From contig OZ244999.1 of assembly GCA_965223265.1 (NCBI GenBank), positions 1,600,001-1,664,000 on the forward strand: DNA of 64,000 nt, given 5' to 3'. The notes below the pieces were generated by a model, which saw only the letters and a list, made by a program, of their open reading frames with translations, had not been told where the DNA came from and did not search any database. The translations under genes and the position numbers were made by a program. Source of the DNA: Planctomycetota bacterium (GTDB lineage Bacteria > Planctomycetota > UBA8108 > SXIK01). Of this stretch, positions 28,517 to 44,896 are shown piece after piece; positions within the stretch are counted from its first letter, which is position 1, and each line of letters opens with the position of its first letter.

Positions 28517-28720
28517 TCAACTCCCCTCTTCGGCCTGCGTGGCTGGTACGCTGCCGGTTGTCGCGGAGCCCTGCTTGAGATCCTTGAGCGTACCAAGCCA
28601 CCGCGCGCTGCTTATCTGAATCCCGAGCTCGTAGAGCTGACCCAAATCCCGTAGGCGCCGGTCAATCGCCTCCGGCGACATATCAACCGTCTTTCTGACT
28701 CGTGTCTTCGTTTCCTTCAA
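28517..28720 (-). CDS. Small helical protein coupled to the nucleotidyltransferase
   Basis: DMSPEAIDRRLRDLGQLYELG; TTG overlaps upstream TGA (alternative start ATG 28681). Confidence 0.55.
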   Translation of the reverse strand: MKETKTRVRKTVDMSPEAIDRRLRDLGQLYELGIQISSARWLGTLKDLKQGSATTGSVPATQAEEGS

Positions 28721-29178
28721 TCTTCTTGACCTTCGAGTTGCTCTATGTCCGCCAAATCCTGCTTGCGGCCAGCCAGGCGCTTCATCCGTACCAGTCCATC
28801 GCGGGACACGGTTCGAATCTGGCGACCCTTCCATTCGAAAACGCCTCGGCCGTTCCAGACTTTCTCGAGACTCGGGCTCACAAGCATGAAGTCAAGCGTC
28901 AGGGTCTCGCTGCCCGAGACTTTCGACACGCGGTGAATGATCTGCTCTTCGGGCCTGCCGAGCCGAAACGGCACTCGCCCTCCTTCAACTGTGAACCCGC
29001 ACTTGGCTGCCACGTTGCGAGCCTTCTCCAGATCTTCCTCCCTAACCAAGAGATCGATATCCTTGGTGAACCGCGGATGCCCGTGAAAGGCAAGCGCCAC
29101 TCCGCCACATAAGGCGTAGTCCAAGCCGGAATCTTCCAGGGCGTTCACGAGTTCCACGAGCTCTTCGTATAGGTTCAT
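28717..29178 (-). CDS. Minimal nucleotidyltransferase (Pol-beta superfamily, AbiEii/DUF6036-like)
   Basis: YALCGGVALAFHGHPRFTKDIDLLV; MKRLAGRKQDLADI. Confidence 0.82.
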   Translation of the reverse strand: MNLYEELVELVNALEDSGLDYALCGGVALAFHGHPRFTKDIDLLVREEDLEKARNVAAKCGFTVEGGRVPFRLGRPEEQIIHRVSKVSGSETLTLDFMLVSPSLEKVWNGRGVFEWKGRQIRTVSRDGLVRMKRLAGRKQDLADIEQLEGQED

Positions 29179-29630: not shown

Positions 29631-30443
29631 TCACCCCTCCAGCGGCTGCCACACGAGGATCTCACCCTTCTGCGACACCGCCGCGTCGCCACAATAGTGA
29701 CGATACGATCCGTTCGCCGCGTCGTATGGAATCGCGAAACCCTCGTCTTTGAGCTGTCGCGCATAGAGCCGCAAAAACGTCGGCTCGTAGCTGCAGTCGT
29801 AGGCGAACGTCGGCAGAAGCGGGATCGGCGTCAGCGACACAATCGTGCCGCGCACCATCCAGGCGCCCGTGCGTAGCTCCGCGCCGCCGACGATCAGCGT
29901 GCCGCCCTTCATTTCGAGTCCGGCGAAATCTTTGACGCTGCCCTTGATCGCGATCGTGCCGCGCTTCATGCGCATGCCGACCTCGAGTCCCGCCGAGCCG
30001 CCGATGAGAATCGTTCCGTCCCTCATTCCCGTCAAACTGCCGCGGTACGCCGCGCCCACCTGTCCGCCAGCGTTTCCTGCGACGCGGATCGTCCCGCCCG
30101 ACATCTCACTGCCGACGAAGTCCGACGCGTTCCCCGACACCTCGATCGTCCCGCCCCTCATGTACGCTCCGAGATGCATGCCGGCGTCACCGCTCACCGT
30201 CAACCGCCCGCGCGTCATGCCGCGCCCCAGCCACTTCACCCGACTGACGTCGCCGCGCACCTCGATCTCCTCACTCGCTTCGCCGTCGACATCGAAGAAG
30301 TCTCCGATCGCGCACTGGCGTTTGCCGAGGAACATCGGCAGCTCGTGGATCTCGGCGTTGCTACGGTTCGCCAGCACGTCCGGTGAAATCGCCTCCGCCT
30401 CCAGCGGCACGGTGGGCTGTTCTTTGACGGTCAGAGTGATCAT
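29631..30443 (-). CDS. fwdC: Formylmethanofuran dehydrogenase subunit C (FwdC/FhcC)
   Basis: GXGXG beta-helix repeats, GAAYRGS..GMRDG, LLPTF. Confidence 0.93.
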   Translation of the reverse strand: MITLTVKEQPTVPLEAEAISPDVLANRSNAEIHELPMFLGKRQCAIGDFFDVDGEASEEIEVRGDVSRVKWLGRGMTRGRLTVSGDAGMHLGAYMRGGTIEVSGNASDFVGSEMSGGTIRVAGNAGGQVGAAYRGSLTGMRDGTILIGGSAGLEVGMRMKRGTIAIKGSVKDFAGLEMKGGTLIVGGAELRTGAWMVRGTIVSLTPIPLLPTFAYDCSYEPTFLRLYARQLKDEGFAIPYDAANGSYRHYCGDAAVSQKGEILVWQPLEG

Positions 30444-30491: not shown

Positions 30492-32135
30492 CTACGACGC
30501 TCCGCCACCGCAGTCGCGGATCTCCGCGCCCTCGATCCGTTCCATCTCCACCGGATAGTTCTCAAACGACATCGTGTAGTACTGCTCGAAGAGCGGCCGC
30601 AAGTATTCGCGAATGTTTTCGTCGTGCGACGGTCGCACGACATGCTCGCGCCCGTCGACCACCTTGCGAATGTCACCCTCCTCGACGACCACCTCACCGC
30701 CCTTCAGAACGTAGCGCGGATGCTCAAACATGCGCTGGCGGTCGGCGTCTTCGTTGTAGATCGTCACGTCGCCGTCAGCCCCGACTCCGAGGTGGCCCTT
30801 CGTCGGCATGCCAAGCGCGCGTGCCGGCCCTGCCGACGTGATGATGGCAATCTCCGACAGTGTGTACTCGCGATCGATGTCAGCGAGAACGATGCGGCTC
30901 AGCGCCTTGGGCGGCAGCTCCGCGATACACTCGCGGCGAAAGTCCGCGTTCATCAGCATGTGGATGATCTCAGGATAGCGCCAAAAGCAGGCACCGTTCG
31001 GATGGTCTGTCGTCAAATAGATGCGCCATGGGTCATCGATGAGGAGCAGAAGTTCCAGCCCGACCGCCCACTGCACCGCGTTGACGAGGTTGCTGCCCTT
31101 GTACTTGTACGGCACGATCCCACAGCCAGTTTCGTTCTCGACGTCGAGGTTGCCCCACTTGCGACCGGTCAGCTGGTAGAGAAGGTGCTGCCACGGCCCA
31201 TCCGCCGTGATGGTGACCGCGTCGCCAAAGAGAACCGCGCCCGCATCGGCGGTCAGGTTTTTGTGCGCATTAAAGTACTCCGCCAGCGCCGCCGCCTCCG
31301 AACGCAGCGTGTGCCAATCGTCGCCGCCATAGGCATGGAACTGCAGGTGCGCCATGTGGGCGCGATTCCCTTCGAGCACCTTCATGGTCTCGATCGTTGT
31401 CTTGATATTTCCCGGCGCGCCCAGGTTGTTGCAGTGGAGATGCACTGGATGCGGCAACTGGAGATCGTCGACGATCGACGCCAAGCTCTTGATGATCAGC
31501 GCCGGTGTCACCTTCTTGTAACCTTCCACCGGTTCCGTGAGAACCTTCGCGTCCTTACCCCACTTCCAAGCCGTGACCCCGCCGGGGTTGACCGCTTTGA
31601 CGCCGTAGCCCTTAGCCGACCAGATGTGCCACGCTATGACATCTTTGGCGCGCTCGATCTCGCCTGCTTCCAGCAGGTCGAGCACGATCTCGTTATTCGC
31701 CATGAGGACGCAGCAGGTTTTGTCGACGATCGGCGTGTCGCGTAGTTCTTCGTGCGTGTGCCGCGCGGAAAGTACTGGCACCGCCGCTTCGTTCACCGTC
31801 GTGTAGCCCTGTCCCGCGTAAAGGTAGCCGGTGGCGAACGTCGTCGGCGTCGTCCCGCCGACACCTGCGCGCAGCACGGGGGAGTGGATGAACTTGGCGG
31901 CATTGCGATGGTTCTCCGGCGTCATGGCGCGCGCGAAGTTCAGCGCACCGCCGGCCACATGCGTGTGCACGTCGACGCCGCCGGGGAACACAACCATGCC
32001 CGTCGCGTCGATGTTGCGCGCGCCCGCAGCGTCGAGTTCAGAGACAACGCGCCCACCTGAGATGCAGACGTCTCTCACTTCGCCGTGAATGTCGTTTGCC
32101 GGGTCGTAGACCCTGCCGCCGGTTATGCGCAGCAT
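30492..32135 (-). CDS. fwdA: Formylmethanofuran dehydrogenase subunit A (amidohydrolase)
   Basis: GGVDVHTH, GVKAVNPGG, HLHCNNLG, HLQFHAYG, LTTDHPNG. Confidence 0.95.
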   Translation of the reverse strand: MLRITGGRVYDPANDIHGEVRDVCISGGRVVSELDAAGARNIDATGMVVFPGGVDVHTHVAGGALNFARAMTPENHRNAAKFIHSPVLRAGVGGTTPTTFATGYLYAGQGYTTVNEAAVPVLSARHTHEELRDTPIVDKTCCVLMANNEIVLDLLEAGEIERAKDVIAWHIWSAKGYGVKAVNPGGVTAWKWGKDAKVLTEPVEGYKKVTPALIIKSLASIVDDLQLPHPVHLHCNNLGAPGNIKTTIETMKVLEGNRAHMAHLQFHAYGGDDWHTLRSEAAALAEYFNAHKNLTADAGAVLFGDAVTITADGPWQHLLYQLTGRKWGNLDVENETGCGIVPYKYKGSNLVNAVQWAVGLELLLLIDDPWRIYLTTDHPNGACFWRYPEIIHMLMNADFRRECIAELPPKALSRIVLADIDREYTLSEIAIITSAGPARALGMPTKGHLGVGADGDVTIYNEDADRQRMFEHPRYVLKGGEVVVEEGDIRKVVDGREHVVRPSHDENIREYLRPLFEQYYTMSFENYPVEMERIEGAEIRDCGGGAS

Positions 32136-32184: not shown

Positions 32185-32345
32185 ACAGCCCGTTGAAAAA
32201 GTCATTCGGCCGAGAAACTGGCCTCTTCGCGCCCAGCTCGACCGCGTCAATACTCGATAATCCCGAAGATTGCCTGCGTTTGCCGCGGCCGATCTGGACG
32301 CGAAGAGACCAGTTTTCGGCTCGAAGCATTTTTTCAACAGGCTGT
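32185..32345 (-). mobile_element. MITE copy 1 (about 161 bp, palindromic)
   Basis: TIRs ACAGCCTGTTGAAAAA / TTTTTCAACGGGCTGT; near-identical to the copies at 46943 and 55053. Confidence 0.88.
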
Positions 32346-33676
32346 TAAGCGCATGGCACCGTCTTGTACGTCGCCGGCAGCCAAGGCGGCTTCTCTTTCA
32401 CTTTGTCGTAGATCCGTCGCACGATCTCTTCGTCGGTGGGATACGGCGAATCGAGAATCGGCCGTAGCGGCAGCGGAATCTCGTCCATGCGGTAGACCGT
32501 TCCCGGCGCGCTGATGCCCGTGGTGGCGGTCGTGAAGTGAACGCGCGCCAGGTGGCTCGTGTGCGTTACCTTGGGGTCGAGGACGATCGTTGGGATTCTC
32601 GCCAGGTGATCGATCGCCGGCTGCGGCATGGTCGCTCCCGGGTCGGCACCTATGATCAGCGCGGCATCGTTGTCGCCGCGCACGAGCACGTCGATCGTCG
32701 AGAACTCGCCCGGGTTGAAGCGGGGGTAGCCGCGCGACAGGTTGACGCCAAACGGATACCCGGTCGACCAGCGCATGATCACGTCGGCGCCGGTGACGTT
32801 GCCGTGGCCGCGCATCGGCATCGACACGAACTTGGTGAACGCGTTCATCTCGGCGGCGAGCGCTAACGCAGCGGCCGAGTTCATGTGCTTGCCGCGCGTC
32901 ATCGACAGGCCCATGCCGAAGAAGAGAACACCGAAGCGCGCCTTCTTCATACGGTCGACGATTTCCTGCAGCTGCTCAAGTGAAAGGCCCGTCTCCGCCA
33001 CGGCCTCAGCGTCGACGGGCTGGCCCTTGACCAGCGCGCGCATCGTCGTCAGCACCTCGAAGTCTTTCCCCGGTCGCACCTGCAGGAGGATGTCGGCGAA
33101 GCGGCTGCTCAGCGTCTCGCGCACGTCGACGAGCACCATCGTGCGCCCCTTGCGGCCCTCCGGCACGAATTTTCCTTTGGGGGTCAAAGAGTACTTGGTG
33201 AAGTGCCGTGGGTGGCAGTCAGCAGGATTGCCCCCCCAAAAGATCAGGAAGTCCGCCCGGTTCATCACTTCGCCGAGCGTGCAGGTGACTTTGCCACCCA
33301 ACTGGGCGGCGATTTCCGTTGGCCCGTGTCAGAGCGAGGTGTGGCTGTCGACCACGCCTCCGACCAGTTCAGCGAGCGCGACGGCTCCGCGCTGCGTTTC
33401 GCAGGTGGTATTACTGAGGCCGTAGACGAGCGGCATGTTCGCGGCGTAGAGGTACTCCGCCGCAGCGTCGACCGCGTCGTCCACCGACGCCGGCTTGCCG
33501 TCAATCAATGCTTCGGGATAGAGCTTCTCCGCCGTGTGGTTTTTGAACCACGCCTCGCCGAGGCCGCAGGCGCGCTTGGTCTTGGTGATGCGGTCGCCTT
33601 CGGCGTGCAGCTCCATGTCGTCGCACACGCAGCCGCAAAACGTACACGTTGCGTTTTCTACGATCTTTACACTCAT
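32345..33676 (-). CDS. fwdB: Formylmethanofuran dehydrogenase subunit B, predicted selenoprotein (UGA at codon 116)
   Basis: CTFCGCVCDD..C Fe-S motif; VVDSHTSL-TGA-HGPTEIA..TCTLGEV in one frame joining ORFs 33329-33676 and 32345-33301; WGGNP...HPRH; MRGHGNV. Confidence 0.88.
33293..33310 (-). promoter_or_regulatory. Putative bacterial SECIS hairpin
   Basis: GCCGCCC-AGUU-GGGUGGC starting 18 nt after UGA, with GU in the apical loop. Confidence 0.7.
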
Positions 33677-34453
33677 GGCTTCCTAAAAAGTTATCGTCGT
33701 CATCGTCGCGGCGACGACGATGCCGTCTCGCTACGCGGGACTCGTTCGAACGCGCGCAGTCGCGTCGACGAGTTCACTCGAGATAGTGCTCTCGAGCGGT
33801 GATCACTCCGAGTCGTCTGAGCCCAGACTGGGCCGGATGATGAAGCTTCACCCAAGCGCCCGTCCACGAAAGCTGCCGCGGATGCGGCGCGGCATGTAAC
33901 GGCCGACATCGGCGTCGACGAGTTCCCACGCCTGAGGGTCCTCGACGCCGAGCTGGTCGAGCGTCTCGGGAAACTGCGCCTTCTCGACCTCGCTCATTTG
34001 GCGGCGAAGCTCTGGTCTCCCCCGTATGGGGGTGCGTCCTGCGTCCACTGGGATCTTCCTAATCTGTCGTTGTGCTAAACCATTCTGTTGAGGAGCTCAA
34101 GGCTCGTGAGGAGCCAGCGAGCTCACCACATAAGATAACCGAAAGGTCGCTCGACTGGTATGTCCGTGATGACCGGGCGATTCACAACACCAACAATTCG
34201 CTCCCTTCGTTTCTCCGTTGCCTTGTGTTCTATGCCTTCACAGGAGTCGGTTTTCCGTCGATGCGATTTCGAAAGGCGAGAAAACGGAGGAAACCAAGGC
34301 CGGAGACGATCGCCGTCCTTCGCGATCGGACGACAGTTTTAAAACGCCACGGTTGGCGAGGTTTGTTGTCGTAAGTCTCATCCCATCAAGGAAATATGGG
34401 CCGGTGTTCGGGCCCGGGCCAGTCCAAAACCAGCTGCTTTTTGGCAACCGAGC

Positions 34454-34816
34454 TTACTGCGGGGCGTCAATGGCCTCGACTTCGACCTCCCAGCCCTTGG
34501 AGAGCGGCATCCCAGTCCCGTCGGTGCTCTGACCCATGAGCTGGCAAGTCGGCGGGCCGTAGGGCACGAAGATCATGCCGCGCGGCACCTTGCCATCCTT
34601 GCCACCATGTTCCTTGCAGGTGAAGGTGCCCTCGCCGTTCTCGGAGCGCACGCGGAGACTGGCACCCGGCTCGACGCCGAGCTCCTTGATGTCATCCGGG
34701 TGCATGATCAGCGTGGTCACCAAGGCTTGGTACTCGGCGCCTTCCTTACCGACGTTGATCTGTCGCCCTTGCTTGGTCGTGCGACCGGCGTTCATGATGA
34801 AAGTTTTGGCGGCCAA
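34454..34816 (-). CDS. fwdD: FwdD-like molybdopterin dinucleotide-binding subunit
   Basis: GRTTKQG, MHPDD...LG, G.IFVPYGP, TDGTGMP.SKG. Confidence 0.88.
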   Translation of the reverse strand: MAAKTFIMNAGRTTKQGRQINVGKEGAEYQALVTTLIMHPDDIKELGVEPGASLRVRSENGEGTFTCKEHGGKDGKVPRGMIFVPYGPPTCQLMGQSTDGTGMPLSKGWEVEVEAIDAPQ

Positions 34817-34931: not shown

Positions 34932-35885
34932 CTACCTCTTGAGCGCTTCTGGATCCACGACGCCGGACGACCCGGCGCTGAGGACTTTGTGCAGGTGAAA
35001 GTGAAACTTGCCAAGCTTGCCGCCGTAGTTGCCGGCGCCGATGGCGAGAACTCCCTCGCCCGACGCAGTCTCGAGGGCTGTGCGCATGGCCGCGGCGACC
35101 GCCGCTTCGTCCGTGCCATCGATGACGATCTCATAGCAGCAGTTGGCGCCGTCGACGAGCTCGCTCTCGACGCGGCCGCGCTGCGTCGGGCAGAGCGGGT
35201 CGTTGGTCGAGGCCACGAGTCCCTTGTAACGCGAGCCGACCTTGCTGCCGCTGCGGACGACGCCACCGGGGAACGGTGTGATCACGCCGGGCAGCGCAGC
35301 GATCGCTTCGCTGGCGCGCCGCGCTGCGGCGAGTGCGACGGCCTGCGAGCGCGCCTGCAAGATGATGTTGCCACCGGCGATGCCCTTGGCGACCGACGCC
35401 GTCTCACCGACGAGGAATTCGCCATCCATCACTGGGACCCGCCAGTAACGGGTGCCGTCGTGCTTCTTACTCTTTTGATAGCCATCGCCGAAGAAGCGCA
35501 GGTGCTTGCCCAGCGCAATCGTGTCGTGGGATTCTGTCCCGTTGGCGCCGGCCGCGTCACCCAAACCATCGTAGCAGGCGGTGGTGGGGCAGGTCATGAT
35601 GCACTGGCCGACGCGGTTGGGCACCGCTTTGGCGAGCCCGTCGGTCGAAAACCCAAACAGCATCACCGCCGCGCCGGGCCGACCGTCGGGGGTTTCGCCC
35701 GGCGAGAGGTAGCGTTCGACACCCGCCTCGGCGTCGCAGCTGATCACCGACGTCCCATATCCCGCGACGGAGCGGAGCGCCGCCTCAAGCCAGTAGTCGT
35801 CGACAGCGGTGACGATAAGCCGCGCGTAGCGCATGCGAAACGCTTCGGCAAACGTGTCAAGAATCGTGGTCGAGCCGATTTGCAT
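34932..35885 (-). CDS. ftr: Formylmethanofuran-tetrahydromethanopterin formyltransferase (Ftr/FhcD)
   Basis: DTFAEAF, TSVISCDAEAG, TPDGRPG, GQCIMTCPTTA, GSKVGS, YEIVIDG, AGNYGGKLG. Confidence 0.95.
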   Translation of the reverse strand: MQIGSTTILDTFAEAFRMRYARLIVTAVDDYWLEAALRSVAGYGTSVISCDAEAGVERYLSPGETPDGRPGAAVMLFGFSTDGLAKAVPNRVGQCIMTCPTTACYDGLGDAAGANGTESHDTIALGKHLRFFGDGYQKSKKHDGTRYWRVPVMDGEFLVGETASVAKGIAGGNIILQARSQAVALAAARRASEAIAALPGVITPFPGGVVRSGSKVGSRYKGLVASTNDPLCPTQRGRVESELVDGANCCYEIVIDGTDEAAVAAAMRTALETASGEGVLAIGAGNYGGKLGKFHFHLHKVLSAGSSGVVDPEALKR

Positions 35886-36133
35886 AGAGCACTTCCGCAT
35901 TGATCAAGGGCTCACCGCACTTGGCGCCCGCAGCGTCGGAGCAGCTGCGGCGACCGCGAGGTGCGACGTTCGAAGCCTATGAACGTAGCCAGGACCGCGG
36001 TGCGAAGCAACTATTTCCAGGGTTTCGATCGAGGGAGCTGGATCGGCTCGCCGGAGGATGTAGGCGATGCGAATAGCCCGAGTGTGCACCCGCGAAGACG
36101 GCTTCAAGGCTCGTTCTACGTTCGAGTAGTGCG

Positions 36134-40116: not shown

Positions 40117-41145
40117 TCATGGAGGGCCAGGGGGCGAGTGATCACCACAACCAGTGCCGACTCGTCGTCCCGCCGCCGTCAGGGCGCGCATCAAGTCGGC
40201 GACGCGGCCAGCGTCGATCCCACGCCGACGTTCGCCGTCTGCGCAGGCGGCCCCACGGACGGCGAGGACGTCCGCTCCCAGCTCAACCATTGGCGCTACG
40301 TCCTGTCGTCGTAGCGATCCTGCGAGGGCCACCGCGACGCCATTCGCGTGAGCATGTGCGATGAGGCAACTCAGCTCACGAGTGGTCAAAAAGTCTCGTA
40401 GCGAACCCGTCCCTTTGACGAACGTGTCGATCAAGAAGAACGGTAGCCGACGGCGCACGGCGAAATCGAGAACCTGCTGCGGTGCTGGCGCTTTCGCGGC
40501 TGCGTGGTCGGCGTAGGCTACCGCGACGAGGTTTGCCCCGGAGCCGGCGATGCGTTGATACCATGCGTCGAGACAGGCCATCCACGAGTTCGTCGCGTTG
40601 CACGACGAAAGTCCCAGTTTGTAAAGAGCGACGCCAGCGACTGGAAGGAAGGCCTCGGGCGTTTCACACTCGAGCAGCTCACCGAGAGCCGCAGTCACCA
40701 CGACGCGCCGCGACGATCGGATGGTGTCTCCGTTCTCTATGGTCAGTGCTTTGATGACTTCGGCTTGGACGGCTGACGACGCACGACCGAGAGAGCCATT
40801 TGCAGGTTCTTTGATGTCGACGATCGCAGCACCGCCGTTGAGCGCGATCCGTGCCTCCGCGGCATCTCTGACACTGACGAGCAGTCGAGGCGAAACTCCT
40901 GCGTCGGCTGTCGCTCCACGTCGTCCGTTGCACTCGTTCGCAGGCCCATTGGTTCCGCTCTGCAGTGCCGACTGCTTCGCGCTGCGTTCGCGATTGCGGG
41001 CAAATACGCCGCCATCGGAGGGTTGCTGTGATCGCCTCTCTCTCGGTGCCCCCAGATTATCGTCCTGCCGTTCGGGCGCGCGTCGGAAACGACGCGGATT
41101 CGCCGTCTCAGACGTTGGATGGAGTCGATCGCCATCAGGTATCAT
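40117..41145 (-). CDS. mfnB: (5-formylfuran-3-yl)methyl phosphate synthase (MfnB/Orf22, methanofuran biosynthesis); start uncertain
   Basis: RLLVSVRDAAEA..A..GGA.IVDIKEP..GSLG, VAVAYAD, LIDT..K, ALAGSL, AVRGAAC. Confidence 0.85.
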   Translation of the reverse strand: MIPDGDRLHPTSETANPRRFRRAPERQDDNLGAPRERRSQQPSDGGVFARNRERSAKQSALQSGTNGPANECNGRRGATADAGVSPRLLVSVRDAAEARIALNGGAAIVDIKEPANGSLGRASSAVQAEVIKALTIENGDTIRSSRRVVVTAALGELLECETPEAFLPVAGVALYKLGLSSCNATNSWMACLDAWYQRIAGSGANLVAVAYADHAAAKAPAPQQVLDFAVRRRLPFFLIDTFVKGTGSLRDFLTTRELSCLIAHAHANGVAVALAGSLRRQDVAPMVELGADVLAVRGAACADGERRRGIDAGRVADLMRALTAAGRRVGTGCGDHSPPGPP

Positions 41146-41177
41146 GAACGTCATTCGAAGTGAGAAGACCAAACATC

Positions 41178-43412
41178 ATGCGACCACGGAAACCCCTCAT
41201 TCTACTTGCCGCGCTGCTGTCGACAAGCGCGGTCCCGCCGATCCAGGCCGGCGAGGCGACCGGGTCTGATTGGGCGTTCACAGCGCCGACTCGAAGTGAA
41301 CCGCCGGTTCGCGCTGAGCTGAAACACGCAGAGCGTGTCCTTAGTCCGATCGATCAGTTCGTGCTCCGGCGTCTCGAGGACGAGGAGCTCGAGCCTGCCC
41401 CGCCCGCCGATCGTGTCACTCTCGTGCGCCGCGCTTACTTCGACTTGCTGGGGCTGCCTCCGACCCCGGAGCAGGTCGAAAGCTTCGTCGCTGACAGCTC
41501 AGAGGCGGCTTGGTCGCAGCTGATCGACACGCTGCTCGAGTCAAAACACTACGGCGAGCGTTGGGCTCGGCATTGGCTCGACGTCGCGCGCTATGCCGAT
41601 AGTGGCGGCTACGAGACGGATATCTATTACCGCAACGCATGGCGTTACCGAGACTACGTCGTCAAGAGCTTCAACGACGACAAGCCCTATGACATCTTCG
41701 TTCAAGAACAAATCGCCGGCGACGAGTTGTGGCCCGACAACCTCGATCTCGACCCGCGCCGCGTCTACGTCGTCTCTGACAAGAAGCGACGCCATCTCGA
41801 GGCACGCATTGCCACCGGGTTCTATGCGCTCGGCCCGCGCGTCCACGAGTCTGGACTCGACGCCAAGCGGTTCGCCTACGAGACGAGAACCGACTGGATC
41901 GACACGACCGCATCGGCGTTCATGGGCCTGACACTCGCTTGCTCACGCTGCCACGATCACAAGTTTGACCCTTTCACGCAGCAGGACTACTTTTCACTGC
42001 ATGCGGTTTTTGCGAGCGCACGCGAGGTGGATCTGCCGCTCTGGACAGCGATGGAAGAGGCCGACTGGCGCCAATCGTTTCCCAAAATCGTCGCCGTTGA
42101 TGAGGCACGCAAGACTTACGAACGGTTCGTGGCGCAGATCGGCGAGAAGCCGACACCCCAGCAGGAAAAGCGCAAACAAGAGCTTCTCGCCGCTGTTGGC
42201 CAAGCGGTACTGAACCTGCCGCAGCGCGCCGCTGGGCAGGCTGCGGTCGAGTATGAAGGCTTGATGCACATTCCGACCGCGAGCGTTCTCGGTCGCGTTC
42301 ATCCCGCACTCATGGACCCGGTGCATGTGCTCGTTCGCGGCGAGTTGAACAAGCCCAAGGAGCGCGTCGAACCGGCGTTACCGCTTCAGCTGGCGAAGGC
42401 GACAGGAGTCGATCCAGCGCTCGGTTCGCCATTCTCGAGCCGCAAGGACTTCGCGCTGTGGCTGACGCGGCCCGACCACCCGCTCACCGCGCGCGTCATG
42501 GTGAATCGCATTTGGCAGTGGCATTTCGGTCGCGGCATCGTCGAGACGCCGAACGACTTCGGTGCGATGGGGCAGCCGCCATCGCATCCAGAGCTTCTCG
42601 ATTGGCTGGCTACCGAGTTCGTGGCGAGTGGCTGGAAGGTGAAGGCGCTTCATCGGCTGATCATGGACTCCGCGACCTACCGCCAAAGTAGCCGCGTCGG
42701 CGATGCACGTCACCTTGACGTCGACCCCGACAACAATCTGCTCTGGCGCATGAACCGCCGCCGGCTTGAGGGCGAAGCGCTGTGGGACTCCGTCCACGCC
42801 GCCGCGGGCACTCTGAACTTGAGCATGGGCGGGCGCCCCATCGTGCCGCCGCTCGCTGACGACGAAATCGCATCCCTGCGCGACAAGTGGCACTGGGTCG
42901 TTACCAGCGACCCGAAACAGCACACCCGGCGAGGCCTCTATATCATCGTCAGGCGCAACTTTAAGTTTCCGATGTTTGAAGTCTTCGACGCGCCGGTGAC
43001 GTCGGCCAGTTGCCCGACGCGCGACGTGACGACCGTGGCGCCGCAGGCTTTGTGGGGGCTCAACAATCGCTCCGTTTTGCGTCAGGCAATGCACTTCGCC
43101 GCTCGCGTGGCCAAAGAAGCCACACCGACCAGTGTTGTCACTGGGACAGCGGCTGCCGGCGCCGCTGGGGCGACTGAAGATCATGTCCGCGGTGCTCAGG
43201 TCGATCGAGCTTGGCGCATCGCTCTCGGGCGAGCGCCCACGGGTGAGGAAGTCAGCTCGTCCCTGCGGCTGCTCACGCAACTCGAAGCGGAGAACGCCCC
43301 GCTAGACGATCCACCCGCAGAACTCGCGGCGCTACCGCCGGAGCGCGCACAAGCGCTGTCGAAATTCTGCCTGGCGCTCTTCAATCTCTCCGAGTTTGCT
43401 TTTGTCGACTGA
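41178..43412 (+). CDS. DUF1549/DUF1553 (PSD1) planctomycete protein
   Basis: RRAYFDLLGLPPT, YGERWARHWLDVARYADS, CSRCHDHKFDP, PSHPELLDWLA. Confidence 0.93.
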   Translation: MRPRKPLILLAALLSTSAVPPIQAGEATGSDWAFTAPTRSEPPVRAELKHAERVLSPIDQFVLRRLEDEELEPAPPADRVTLVRRAYFDLLGLPPTPEQVESFVADSSEAAWSQLIDTLLESKHYGERWARHWLDVARYADSGGYETDIYYRNAWRYRDYVVKSFNDDKPYDIFVQEQIAGDELWPDNLDLDPRRVYVVSDKKRRHLEARIATGFYALGPRVHESGLDAKRFAYETRTDWIDTTASAFMGLTLACSRCHDHKFDPFTQQDYFSLHAVFASAREVDLPLWTAMEEADWRQSFPKIVAVDEARKTYERFVAQIGEKPTPQQEKRKQELLAAVGQAVLNLPQRAAGQAAVEYEGLMHIPTASVLGRVHPALMDPVHVLVRGELNKPKERVEPALPLQLAKATGVDPALGSPFSSRKDFALWLTRPDHPLTARVMVNRIWQWHFGRGIVETPNDFGAMGQPPSHPELLDWLATEFVASGWKVKALHRLIMDSATYRQSSRVGDARHLDVDPDNNLLWRMNRRRLEGEALWDSVHAAAGTLNLSMGGRPIVPPLADDEIASLRDKWHWVVTSDPKQHTRRGLYIIVRRNFKFPMFEVFDAPVTSASCPTRDVTTVAPQALWGLNNRSVLRQAMHFAARVAKEATPTSVVTGTAAAGAAGATEDHVRGAQVDRAWRIALGRAPTGEEVSSSLRLLTQLEAENAPLDDPPAELAALPPERAQALSKFCLALFNLSEFAFVD

Positions 43413-43420
43413 ATCACAAG

Positions 43421-44896
43421 ATGCGACGAGACTTTGGGAAAATGAACGAAACGCAGACGATCCAAGAGAACGAATCGAGTCGCCATAGCGTTCGTCCCGC
43501 GGGACTGCTCGGTAGACGCGATGTTCTTCGCACTGCGAGCCTCGGGTTCGGCTCATTGGCTCTCGGCGATCTTCTGACGCGGCAGACCCAGGCGGCGACG
43601 CTGAACCCTCTCGCGCCTCGCGAGCCGCATCTTCCTGGGACTGCGCGCAGCGTGATCTTCCTCTTCATGCAGGGGGGGCCGAGCCAATTGGAGACGTTCG
43701 ACCCAAAGCCGGTCCTGACGAAGTATCACGGGCAGTTGCTCCCGAAAGAACTACAGGATTATGATCTGGCGCAGATCAACACGGCCGACTCGACGATCAT
43801 GGCGCCGCAGTTTGCGTTCGAGCGCCATGGAGAGAGTGGACAGCAGGTCTCGAGCGTTTTTCCTCACCTGGCGAAACACGCTGACAAACTGGCGATTATT
43901 CGCTCGCTCCATCACGAGCTCTTCATTCACGGCTCGGCAATGATCATGGTGCATTCGGGCACACAGCTATTGGGGCATCCGAGCGTTGGCGCTTGGGTGG
44001 TCTACGGGCTTGGGTGTGAGAGCGATAACCTACCAGCCTACGTCGCCATGACGGACAGCGTCTTTCGCAACGGCGCGTCGATGTACACATCAGGGTTCTT
44101 GCCGGCGATCTATCAAGGCACCGACATGCGGATCGAGGGCGTGCCGATTCAGAACCTTGTGCGCCCCTCGAGCATCGGCGCGCAGGAGCAGCGGCTTCTG
44201 CTCGATCAGATCGTCGAGTGGAATCGCCAGCACCGAGAGTCACGACCAGGGGATAGTCGCCTGGACGCGCGGATCGCAAACTACGAGCTCGCGTTCCGTA
44301 TGCAGACGGCGGCTCCGGAGATGATGGATCTGTCGCAGGAGTCGGCCGCGACGCGGTCGCTCTACGGCATCGACGACGCTACGTCTGAACGCTTTGGTAA
44401 GATGTGCCTGATGTCGCGCCGCATGGTCGAGCGTGGGGTGCGCTACGTACACTTGATTTCGGGCGGTTGGGATGCGCATGGCAACTGCAAGGGTAACCAT
44501 CAAAACCAAGCGAAGAAAGTCGACCAACCCATCGCCGGCCTCATCACGGATCTGGCACGGCGCGGCCTACTCGACAGCACGCTACTGGTGTGGGTCGGTG
44601 AATTCGGCCGCACACCCATCCGGCAAGGGTCGAACGGACGCGACCACCATCCGTACGGCTTCAGCGGTTGGCTCGCCGGTGGGGGAGTCGTCGGTGGTAA
44701 AACGATCGGGGCGACCGACGACTTCGGTTTCGAGGCAGTCGAAGACAAAGTCCACGTCAACGACCTGCACGCGACGATGCTAGGGCTGCTGGGCATCGAC
44801 CATGAGCGGCTCACGTACCTCTTCGAAGGCCGAGAACGTCGCTTGACCGACGTCGGGGGGCACAACAACTTGGCTCCTCGACTTGTCCGGGCGTGA
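43421..44896 (+). CDS. DUF1501 domain protein (Tat-type signal)
   Basis: GRRDVL signal, FLFMQGGPSQLETFDPKP, EFGRTP, GRDHHP. Confidence 0.92.
   Translation: MRRDFGKMNETQTIQENESSRHSVRPAGLLGRRDVLRTASLGFGSLALGDLLTRQTQAATLNPLAPREPHLPGTARSVIFLFMQGGPSQLETFDPKPVLTKYHGQLLPKELQDYDLAQINTADSTIMAPQFAFERHGESGQQVSSVFPHLAKHADKLAIIRSLHHELFIHGSAMIMVHSGTQLLGHPSVGAWVVYGLGCESDNLPAYVAMTDSVFRNGASMYTSGFLPAIYQGTDMRIEGVPIQNLVRPSSIGAQEQRLLLDQIVEWNRQHRESRPGDSRLDARIANYELAFRMQTAAPEMMDLSQESAATRSLYGIDDATSERFGKMCLMSRRMVERGVRYVHLISGGWDAHGNCKGNHQNQAKKVDQPIAGLITDLARRGLLDSTLLVWVGEFGRTPIRQGSNGRDHHPYGFSGWLAGGGVVGGKTIGATDDFGFEAVEDKVHVNDLHATMLGLLGIDHERLTYLFEGRERRLTDVGGHNNLAPRLVRA

Follow-up and report, generated by a model that had tools for sequence, protein, structure and literature searches.

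Vorholt et al. in 1997 reportedly described a selenium-dependent formylmethanofuran dehydrogenase subunit, FwuB, from Methanopyrus kandleri and a selenocysteine (Sec)-containing FwdB from the Methanococcales. The stretch of DNA analysed here, hereafter the window, comprises 64,000 nucleotides (nt) of a Planctomycetota bacterium (GenBank assembly GCA_965223265.1, contig OZ244999.1, positions 1,600,001 to 1,664,000) and carries on its minus strand a bacterial gene of this kind, fwdB (fmdB), which contains one in-frame TGA and is preceded in the same operon by a small open reading frame (ORF) with an in-frame TGA of its own. In 2016, Kim et al. listed fmdB as a selenoprotein gene of a Rhodopirellula-like planctomycete, a number of Archaea and two bacteria that are unclassified, described an fmdD-fmdB-fmdA-fmdC operon with glycine homologues in other planctomycetes, and proposed horizontal gene transfer (PMC4807772). 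A 2023 survey of the MopB superfamily gave 149 bacterial FwdB matches, with frequent Sec and truncated annotation (PMC10100899), and a 2026 review treats FwdB as a selenoprotein family of bacteria and archaea (PMC13188914), the archaeal proteins being placed in family TIGR03129 with Sec at a UHxP ligand motif (Table 1 of the same review). The novelty implied by the initial annotation of the window therefore did not hold, since a planctomycete Sec-FmdB encoded in this operon has been in print since 2016 (PMC4807772). FwdB with Sec is a kind already described, planctomycetes included, and what is new is the small ORF, whose absence from print refers to literature searches and to searches of Pfam and NCBIfam.

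The features of fwdB are as follows, in window coordinates.

32345..33676, minus strand: fwdB/fmdB, formylmethanofuran dehydrogenase subunit B, 443 amino acids (aa) with UGA at codon 116; family TIGR03129
33329..33331, minus strand: the UGA putatively read as selenocysteine (U116), at the molybdenum or tungsten (Mo/W) ligand position; aligned with Cys118 of 5t5i_B
33293..33310, minus strand: hairpin of fwdB resembling a selenocysteine insertion sequence (SECIS), in the coding region, with a 7-base pair (bp) stem and the loop AGUU; hairpin energy -13.1 kcal/mol

Read on the minus strand from 33676 to 32345, the gene gives a read-through product of 443 aa with one in-frame TGA (33331..33329) in the context DSHTSL-U-HGPTEIAAQLGG, whereas translation with table 11 cuts the frame into ORFs of 115 and 318 aa. 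That these two pieces are a single frame joined by one TGA had been proposed at the outset, with the right coordinates, and the match to TIGR03129 runs across the TGA, covering positions 1–421 of the 421 in the profile at 497.6 bits (cut-off 327.8). A genome-wide scan with the same profile returned fwdB (493.3 bits, one TGA inside) as the sole gene of the family above the cut-off; Pfam yielded no family at E ≤0.001, the identification having come from NCBIfam. Among solved structures the best matches are to archaeal FwdB chains at 369–385 bits, with Methylorubrum extorquens FhcB (6s6y_B) at 48.3 bits, and the sequence matches in the PDB include 9sfi_Q (2.9e-114), 8rja_B (7.4e-112) and 5t5i_B (2.6e-109). 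Chain 9sfi_Q was deposited as 'Molybdopterin oxidoreductase'; opposite U116 its sequence shows an unknown residue, X, and it may be a solved Sec-type FwdB.

The alignment with 5t5i_B, the FwdB of Methanothermobacter wolfeii, extends over residues 5–428 and places U116, H117 and R289 on Cys118, His119 and Arg288, the three residues named as catalytic in that enzyme (PMC6926001). The UGA thus stands at the position of the metal-ligand Cys, where the initial annotation had put it. Cysteines C11, C14, C18 and C37 do not vary in 46 sequences and align with cysteines of the PDB FwdB chains, and the N-terminal CxxCxxxC...C motif corresponds to the predicted [4Fe-4S] cluster motif. As predicted from its sequence, the protein keeps all redox-active features: the Fe-S motif, the Sec-His active site, the Arg of PMRGH and a separate FwdD cap domain. 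The TGA itself was seen again in contigs from public sequencing runs: a contig from run X3 covers all of 33200..34100, both TGAs included, with zero differences, and two contigs from run X1 (33200..33305 and 33293..34100) likewise have none, so that the TGC or TGT that reads might have shown was not met with. X1 and X3 are runs on two samples of one study and possibly the assembly's own source. Contigs of a soil metatranscriptome (X8), which belong to relatives at 80–90% identity, cover fwdB across the TGA together with part of the small ORF; these are a hint of transcription and nothing more, as the library may contain DNA and the contigs show no level, and no meaning attaches to regions that X8 leaves uncovered.

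Homologues were compared over 93 close loci at 74–100% identity, seven of which are duplicate records of the same genomes, giving 85 distinct sequences. The TGA is kept at the fwdB codon in 93/93 loci (85/85 distinct), in frames that are otherwise full-length and intact. A set of 40 relatives contained 12 full-length orthologues with the same gene order (79–86% identity), each with one TGA at this codon; the best 80 of the 517 relatives found in a scan of species-representative genomes (74–86% identity) have it as well. An even sample of 401 genomes from the phylum contained a fwdB homologue in 27, with TGA in six, all from the window's order. Six homologues at 58–61% identity have TGC or TGT within SVCHGPSG, and among 24 non-TGA homologues the residue is Cys in 10 and Gly, Ser or another residue in the remainder. 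Within the best 120 of 5962 database proteins, the 31 at 82–100% identity are fragments of 306–329 aa starting after the TGA, and the other 89, all at ≤75% identity, span the codon with Cys (72), Thr (10), Ser (5), Tyr (1) or Arg (1). The alternation of predicted Sec with Cys at the ligand codon is real, and the Sec form is split by public gene callers, as had been foreseen for this gene: every one of the 31 database proteins at ≥82% identity is a C-terminal fragment.

In several full-length relatives at 60–69% identity (P0077, P0078, P0080, P0081, P0082, P0088, P0097 and P0100) the ligand position is occupied by Thr, Ser or Arg and much of the surrounding motif is retained, e.g. DSHTSLTHGPTKIAAQLV; these proteins may be intermediate forms linking redox-active FwdB with scaffold-type FhcB. 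Planctomycetota (Gemmataceae, Pirellulales, Singulisphaera, Rubripirellula) are named in the record titles of the closest loci. Sec-type FwdB at 74–86% identity also occurs in metagenome-assembled genomes (MAGs) labelled Acidobacteriota (Vicinamibacterales, Terriglobia), Rokubacteria, Gemmatimonadota/Longimicrobiales and, in one case, Alcaligenaceae, which points either to wrongly labelled bins or to horizontal spread of the operon as a unit.

The UGA of fwdB is followed by a spacer of 18 nt, CACGGGCCAACGGAAAUC, and then by a stem in which GCCGCCC (33310..33304) pairs with GGGUGGC (33299..33293) around the loop AGUU (33303..33300), the loop starting 25 nt after the UGA. This hairpin had been read from the sequence in the initial annotation, with the same stem, loop and spacing, and it is also contained in the minimum-free-energy fold. 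Across the 85 distinct TGA sequences, 586/595 cells of the stem are paired, as compared with 172–338/595 when the 3' arm was slid by 1–3 columns; the unpaired cells are confined to the terminal pair (7 cells) and two G-G oppositions, and all other changes keep G-C or G-U. The third positions of codons +7 to +10 after the UGA are nearly frozen, whereas flanking four-fold codons are free to vary. Ala +7 is GCC in 79 sequences and GCT in 6 and Ala +8 is GCC in 83 and GCT in 2, as against GCG 24, GCC 44, GCA 6 and GCT 9 at the control Ala +25; Gln +9 is CAG and Leu +10 is TTG in 85/85, while Leu +18 uses six codons and Leu -1 is CTC 28, TTG 33, CTT 23 and TTA 1. The hairpin is absent from the 24 non-TGA homologues, whose corresponding 18 nt reach only 0 to -5.1 kcal/mol on folding. 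The published model of the bacterial SECIS has a loop of 3–9 nt, a stem of 4–16 bp and a G among the first two loop nucleotides, as a rule with G or U after it, with 16–37 nt between UGA and loop and an energy of ≤ -7.5 kcal/mol (PMC13188914, Fig. 2 legend). With its 4-nt loop, 7 bp, G-U at loop positions 2–3, 25 nt and -13.1 kcal/mol, the fwdB hairpin lies within each of these limits. On this comparative evidence it is a predicted SECIS-type element under RNA-level selection.

The genome, a single contig of 9.18 Mb that is 91.65% complete by marker genes, encodes the machinery that such an element requires. The genes selA (548.1 bits), selB (355.8 bits, with its C-terminal part) and selD (308.8 bits) are all present together with a tRNA-Sec (70.3 bits on RF01852; tRNA-SeC with anticodon TCA in ARAGORN), so that the four components for which the genome was to be searched were all found. 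The selD match (G000:C1:3460739-3461653, plus strand; ~305 residues) lies within an open frame of 790 aa, and SelD may be fused to another domain. A second selenoprotein gene, fdhA (TIGR01591, 739.7 bits; G000:C1:8399754-8401757, plus strand), has one in-frame TGA in the context ...NCSRA-U-HAPT..., and a hairpin with the loop GGUCU starts ~15 nt after it. Elsewhere in these loci TGA is an ordinary stop, as at the end of fwdB itself and at 40/83 of the read-through ends of the small ORF.

The operon on the minus strand is ordered fhcD - fwdD - small ORF - fwdB - fwdA - fwdC, and its other genes, with one gene located ~4 kb upstream, are as follows.

34932..35900, minus strand: fhcD/ftr, formylmethanofuran--tetrahydromethanopterin N-formyltransferase; TIGR03119, 396.3 bits (cut-off 292.6)
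34454..34816, minus strand: fwdD-like gene, molybdopterin dinucleotide-binding 'fourth domain'; PF01568, 38.3 bits (cut-off 26.8)
30492..32135, minus strand: fwdA, subunit A (amidohydrolase); TIGR03121, 705.9 bits (cut-off 392.75)
29631..30443, minus strand: fwdC, subunit C; TIGR03122, 261.2 bits (cut-off 130.65)
40117..41172, minus strand: 4-HFC-P synthase-like gene, ~4 kb upstream of the operon; PF04476, 168.8 bits

The FwdD-like protein matches the FwdD chains 9sfi_S (5.8e-15) and 5t5i_D (2.9e-12) in the PDB and scores 73.5 bits on NF042908, under the cut-off of 175. Members of PF04476 presumably act in methanofuran biosynthesis (MfnB), and the genome also carries mch and two copies of fae. 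In the mechanism proposed for fwdB, SelB carrying Sec-tRNA(Sec) would bind the hairpin and the ribosome would insert selenocysteine instead of terminating, and FwdB together with FwdD would then carry a bis-pterin Mo or W centre with a Sec ligand. FwdA would hydrolyse formyl-methanofuran, and oxidation of the resulting formate to CO2 would take place at the Sec-pterin centre, so that, with FwdA, FwdC and the formyltransferase, formyl-tetrahydromethanopterin (formyl-H4MPT) would pass through formyl-methanofuran to CO2 as the last step of H4MPT/methanofuran-linked one-carbon (C1) oxidation. The oxidative direction is proposed as the one that fits an organism with fae and mch; the Fwd reaction could conceivably also run in reverse.

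Just downstream of fwdC lies an NTP_transf_5/AbiEii-like ORF (window 28717..29178, minus strand). In several relatives, 1–2 kb of extra ORFs stand within the operon, separating the small ORF from fwdB or fwdB from fwdA (L073 1905..4000, L089 2575..4000, L075 5306..6874). These inserted ORFs were considered as redox partners and rejected, having only weak AbiEii-like nucleotidyltransferase or PIN matches, or nothing. On the plus strand at 41160..44896, neighbouring genes encode PSCyt2/PSD1 (DUF1549/DUF1553) and DUF1501 domains, a pair typical of planctomycete genomes; both these neighbours and the record titles of the closest loci agree with the 'probable planctomycete' of the initial annotation.

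Taken together, these data indicate that the split gene very probably encodes one Sec-decoded, cofactor-bearing FwdB, a reading that was weighed against three others. A pseudogene created by nonsense mutation, or a TGA arising from sequencing error, would account for the two pieces given by table 11 and likewise by public gene callers; the recurrence of the same TGA in 85 distinct sequences of 74–100% identity with otherwise intact frames, the end-to-end match to the hidden Markov model, the two-sample contigs free of differences, and the position of fwdB as the sole FwdB-family gene in a genome retaining the rest of the pathway make this extremely unlikely. Near-cognate or reassigned decoding of the UGA as an ordinary residue (Trp, Cys or Gly) is very unlikely: read-through alone would suffice for an open frame, but TGA is a normal stop elsewhere in these loci, the codon is a Cys/Sec metal-ligand position, and the full Sec machinery and a conserved SECIS-type hairpin are in place. 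The protein might instead be an FhcB-type scaffold within a formyltransferase/hydrolase complex that releases formate and performs no redox chemistry. The H4MPT pathway of methylotrophs does end with Fhc (PMC6926001), fhcD shares the operon here, and in some relatives at 60–69% identity the ligand position is taken by Thr, Ser or Arg; however, the [4Fe-4S] motif, the ligand residue, the His, the Arg and the FwdD gene are all retained, and the cost of Sec insertion at a non-catalytic site would be hard to account for, leaving little probability for such a scaffold. It is because all redox-active features are kept that FwdB is not taken to be the cofactor-less FhcB scaffold of methylotrophs.

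Several observations weigh against a Sec-decoded, redox-active FwdB or limit how its support is to be read. The fold energy of the fwdB hairpin is ordinary, with z -0.69 over 81 nt (44/200 shuffles at least as good) and z -1.38 over 42 nt (16/200 shuffles at least as good). Single-sequence folding z-scores overall, at -0.29 to -2.2, are not decisive, and because such an energy is ordinary for the G+C-rich composition, the significance of the hairpin must come from comparison. Of the three things expected of homologues in the initial annotation, Cys/UGA alternation and a hairpin kept in the UGA forms (85/85) were observed, but strict covariation was not shown, the stem having G-C to G-U changes only and none that are two-sided; as the residues AAQLGG are invariant, the RNA-level constraint is read from synonymous sites alone. 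A search of 33150..33450 and 33600..34520 against Rfam at a permissive threshold gave no SECIS family or riboswitch, its matches being at chance level (best E 0.014, an unrelated viral hairpin). The 93 loci are kin and include the seven duplicate records, so that their counts are not independent events. Finally, no FwdF/G-type ferredoxin gene was seen among the ORFs of the operon, and it is only by inference that a redox partner, and hence a direction of catalysis, is assigned.

The second TGA of the locus lies in the 775-nt spacer between fwdD and fwdB, where the following features were placed.

33806..33997, minus strand: small ORF with a TGA inside it, a selenoprotein candidate of 64 aa; from comparison of loci
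33848..33850, minus strand: internal UGA of the small ORF, candidate Sec50; conserved TGA
33820..33834, minus strand: SECIS-like hairpin of the small ORF, GGCCC-AGUCU-GGGCU; fold -9 kcal/mol, with covariation

Table 11 ends the small ORF at the TGA (33850..33848), and its read-through product is MSEVEK...GRYMPRRIRGSFRGRALG-U-SFIIRPSLGSDDSE, the start being uncertain with a GTG at 34048 as an alternative. By tblastn and motif scans the small ORF was found between fwdD and fwdB in 90/93 loci; the three misses are two contigs cut just upstream of fwdB and the locus L134, which is without the ORF. The N-terminus is variable and the last ~27 residues before the UGA are conserved as AWExIxxGR[YF]MPRR[IV]RGSxxGRxLG, a motif within which synonymous change is free (4 codons at invariant Gly, 4–7 at Arg and 5 at Leu). 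The inner TGA is present in 83/83 distinct sequences, and the next in-frame stop is TGA in 40, TAA in 24 and TAG in 19. Beyond the inner TGA the frame stays open for 12–38 codons (mode 14, in 34/83), length differences are multiples of three, Phe occupies position +2 in 83/83 with TTC or TTT as its codon, and one subgroup ends in ...DGQ[LI]RR with synonymous changes.

Strong matches to the small ORF appear only in company with the TGA form of fwdB. A tblastn search of the whole genome found one copy, with all other matches at E 0.25 or worse, and a profile of the region before the UGA gave strong matches (67–72 bits) in exactly the six of the 401 genomes that have a TGA-type fwdB; 14 further genomes had weak matches (≤22.5 bits), and none of these is among the six with a 58–61% Cys-type homologue. 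No Pfam or NCBIfam family was obtained at E up to 1, and the PDB contained no relative, the best hit (E 0.8) being a chance match to JmjC demethylases. The 70 database relatives are unnamed or called 'hypothetical protein', and 69 of them end exactly at ...LG; the remaining one, P0054, on a contig of 580 nt, goes on with Cys after ...LG. Nothing similar stands among the 119 families in Table 1 of the 2026 review (PMC13188914), and the deep-Sep paper mentions neither formylmethanofuran nor planctomycetes. A complex prediction in which FwdB entered as its two table-11 pieces, together with FwdD and the small ORF as far as its TGA, scored 0.00, which speaks neither for nor against binding.

The hairpin of the small ORF starts 12–13 nt after the TGA, with its loop 18–19 nt after the UGA, and its commonest form is CCGCCC-GGUUC-GGGCGG as compared with GGCCC-AGUCU-GGGCU in the window. 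The G-U of the loop is invariant or nearly so. In an alignment of 73 sequences (A1) the 5-bp core is 98.1% paired, against 27.6–50% in slid controls; 3/5 of the core pairs change on both sides, pair 34-44 being C-G in 37 sequences, U-A in 27 and U-G in 8, and the covariation score was reached by 0/500 shuffles. The switch from C-G to U-A replaces Pro by Ser and, at the same time, Gly by Asp, so that it is the RNA pairing that is kept and not the residues. Loop size, stem length, G-[G/U], spacing and energy all lie within the limits of the bacterial SECIS model cited above (PMC13188914), and at z -0.29 in the window the energy is not exceptional given the base composition. G-U stands in each of the genome's three candidate SECIS loops, those of fwdB, fdhA and the small ORF, with a C-rich 5' arm before it.

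It is probable that Sec is inserted at the UGA of the small ORF, and the most likely course is that the ORF would do so at its own UGA using its own hairpin. As to its function, we give about an even chance to our first choice, a translated selenoprotein of ~60–75 aa that would serve the Sec-type Fwd enzyme specifically, as a subunit or as a factor in its maturation. Conservation of GR[YF]MPRR[IV]RGSxxGRxLG as protein with free synonymous change points to this, as do the inner TGA fixed while the next stop varies, the fixed Phe +2, indels in threes and the ...DGQ[LI]RR end, the covarying hairpin, and strong matches found only alongside a TGA-type fwdB. In L073, L089 and L094, moreover, the small ORF stays beside fwdD with other ORFs separating it from fwdB; among these inserted ORFs, one in L073 is weakly AbiEii-like and none is recognised in L089. 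Such a subunit or factor sits less well with the lack of a clear Cys homologue, with the 69/70 database relatives that stop at the TGA, with the variable N-terminus and the lack of a redox motif near Sec, and with the Pfam, NCBIfam and PDB searches, from which no family, fold or partner emerged.

A serious alternative, somewhat unlikely in our judgement, is a selenium-sensing leader that couples translation or transcription of fwdB to the capacity for Sec insertion. Only ribosomes decoding the small-ORF UGA as Sec would reach the end of the ORF near the start of fwdB, and the conserved residues preceding the UGA would exert their effect within the ribosome, in keeping with an N-terminus that varies and conservation limited to the ~27 residues that lead up to the UGA. 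The read-through stop overlaps the predicted fwdB start in 22 of 82 distinct loci (16 of them at -4) and lies ≤15 nt away in 24 more, and this arrangement in 46/82 suggests translational coupling, which would be sensible only if the inner UGA is decoded. The ORF also occurs only with TGA-type fwdB, in a genome without a Cys-type paralogue as fallback. Against a leader stand the 126-nt gap to fwdB in the window itself, gaps of >150 nt in 5 loci (three of them with inserted ORFs), and post-Sec residues that look selected as protein; no alternative RNA structures came to light, though no search was aimed at them. A leader and a subunit or maturation factor are not mutually exclusive. The more specific proposal of a selenium gate, in which the UGA and SECIS of the small ORF would test Sec-insertion capacity and license fwdB expression, is unlikely, and a previously undescribed family of small selenoproteins tied to Sec-type FwdB, spread over Planctomycetota and MAGs labelled Acidobacteriota, Rokubacteria and Gemmatimonadota, appears much more likely than such a gate. 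It is quite unlikely that the TGA is a true stop and that the hairpin serves some other end such as attenuation, processing or mRNA stability. All gene callers terminate the ORF at the TGA, the hairpin energy is ordinary and TGA is a common stop in G+C-rich genomes, but neither TAA nor TAG occurs at the inner stop in 83 distinct sequences though the next stop varies, the frame is open for ≥12 codons in all 83 with indels in threes, the loop G-U and spacing are those of the bacterial SECIS model, and no U-run follows the stem.

These findings suggest that a planctomycete and a wide soil and freshwater clade carry a selenium-dependent, cofactor-bearing formylmethanofuran dehydrogenase, and, as a Cys-type copy is missing from the genome, the H4MPT-linked C1 pathway of this organism should rely on the supply of selenium. 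The small ORF would be the second Sec-encoding gene of the operon, one whose SECIS covaries, which co-occurs strictly with Sec-type fwdB and for which no family has been described. As a subunit it would be a new component of a well-studied enzyme family; as a leader it would show how bacteria spare the translation of a selenoenzyme when selenium is short; and if the selenium gate were true, the recoding event itself would be the nutrient sensor of a selenoprotein operon.

TnaC is a regulatory nascent peptide that acts at a stop codon. The small ORF is like it in being a short ORF upstream of a possibly regulated gene with conservation just before the UGA, but this is an analogy only, as the two have no sequence similarity and the UGA in the small ORF probably codes for Sec. 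The tungsten formylmethanofuran dehydrogenase FwdABCDFG of M. wolfeii (5T5I) has in common with the window the homologues of FwdA, FwdB, FwdC and FwdD and the catalytic and [4Fe-4S] residues. The M. wolfeii enzyme is archaeal with a Cys ligand, whereas the window has the predicted Sec in a bacterial host, a formyltransferase gene and the small UGA-containing ORF in the operon, no FwdF/G gene that was seen, and probably the oxidative direction. The archaeal SECIS usually lies in the 3' untranslated region (PMC13188914); the candidate element of the window follows directly on the UGA within the coding region, which is the bacterial arrangement. FhcABCD of M. extorquens (6S6Y) shares a bacterial H4MPT/methanofuran C1 pathway, homologues of subunits A–D and fhcD in the operon, but its FhcB has Ser for the ligand Cys and is without His119, Arg288, the [4Fe-4S] domain and FwdD (PMC6926001), all of which the window keeps. 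The passages of Kim et al. 2016 that the analysis covered contain no SECIS analysis of fmdB and do not mention a small ORF between fmdD and fmdB (PMC4807772), although its S9 Table and S1/S2 Text may bear on both. The Sec-FmdB of the P2 planctomycete and of the Lake Washington fosmid described there shares with this locus the operon and the Sec insertion genes (PMC4807772); P2 holds both Sec and Cys forms of the protein, whereas the genome analysed here holds the putative Sec form only.

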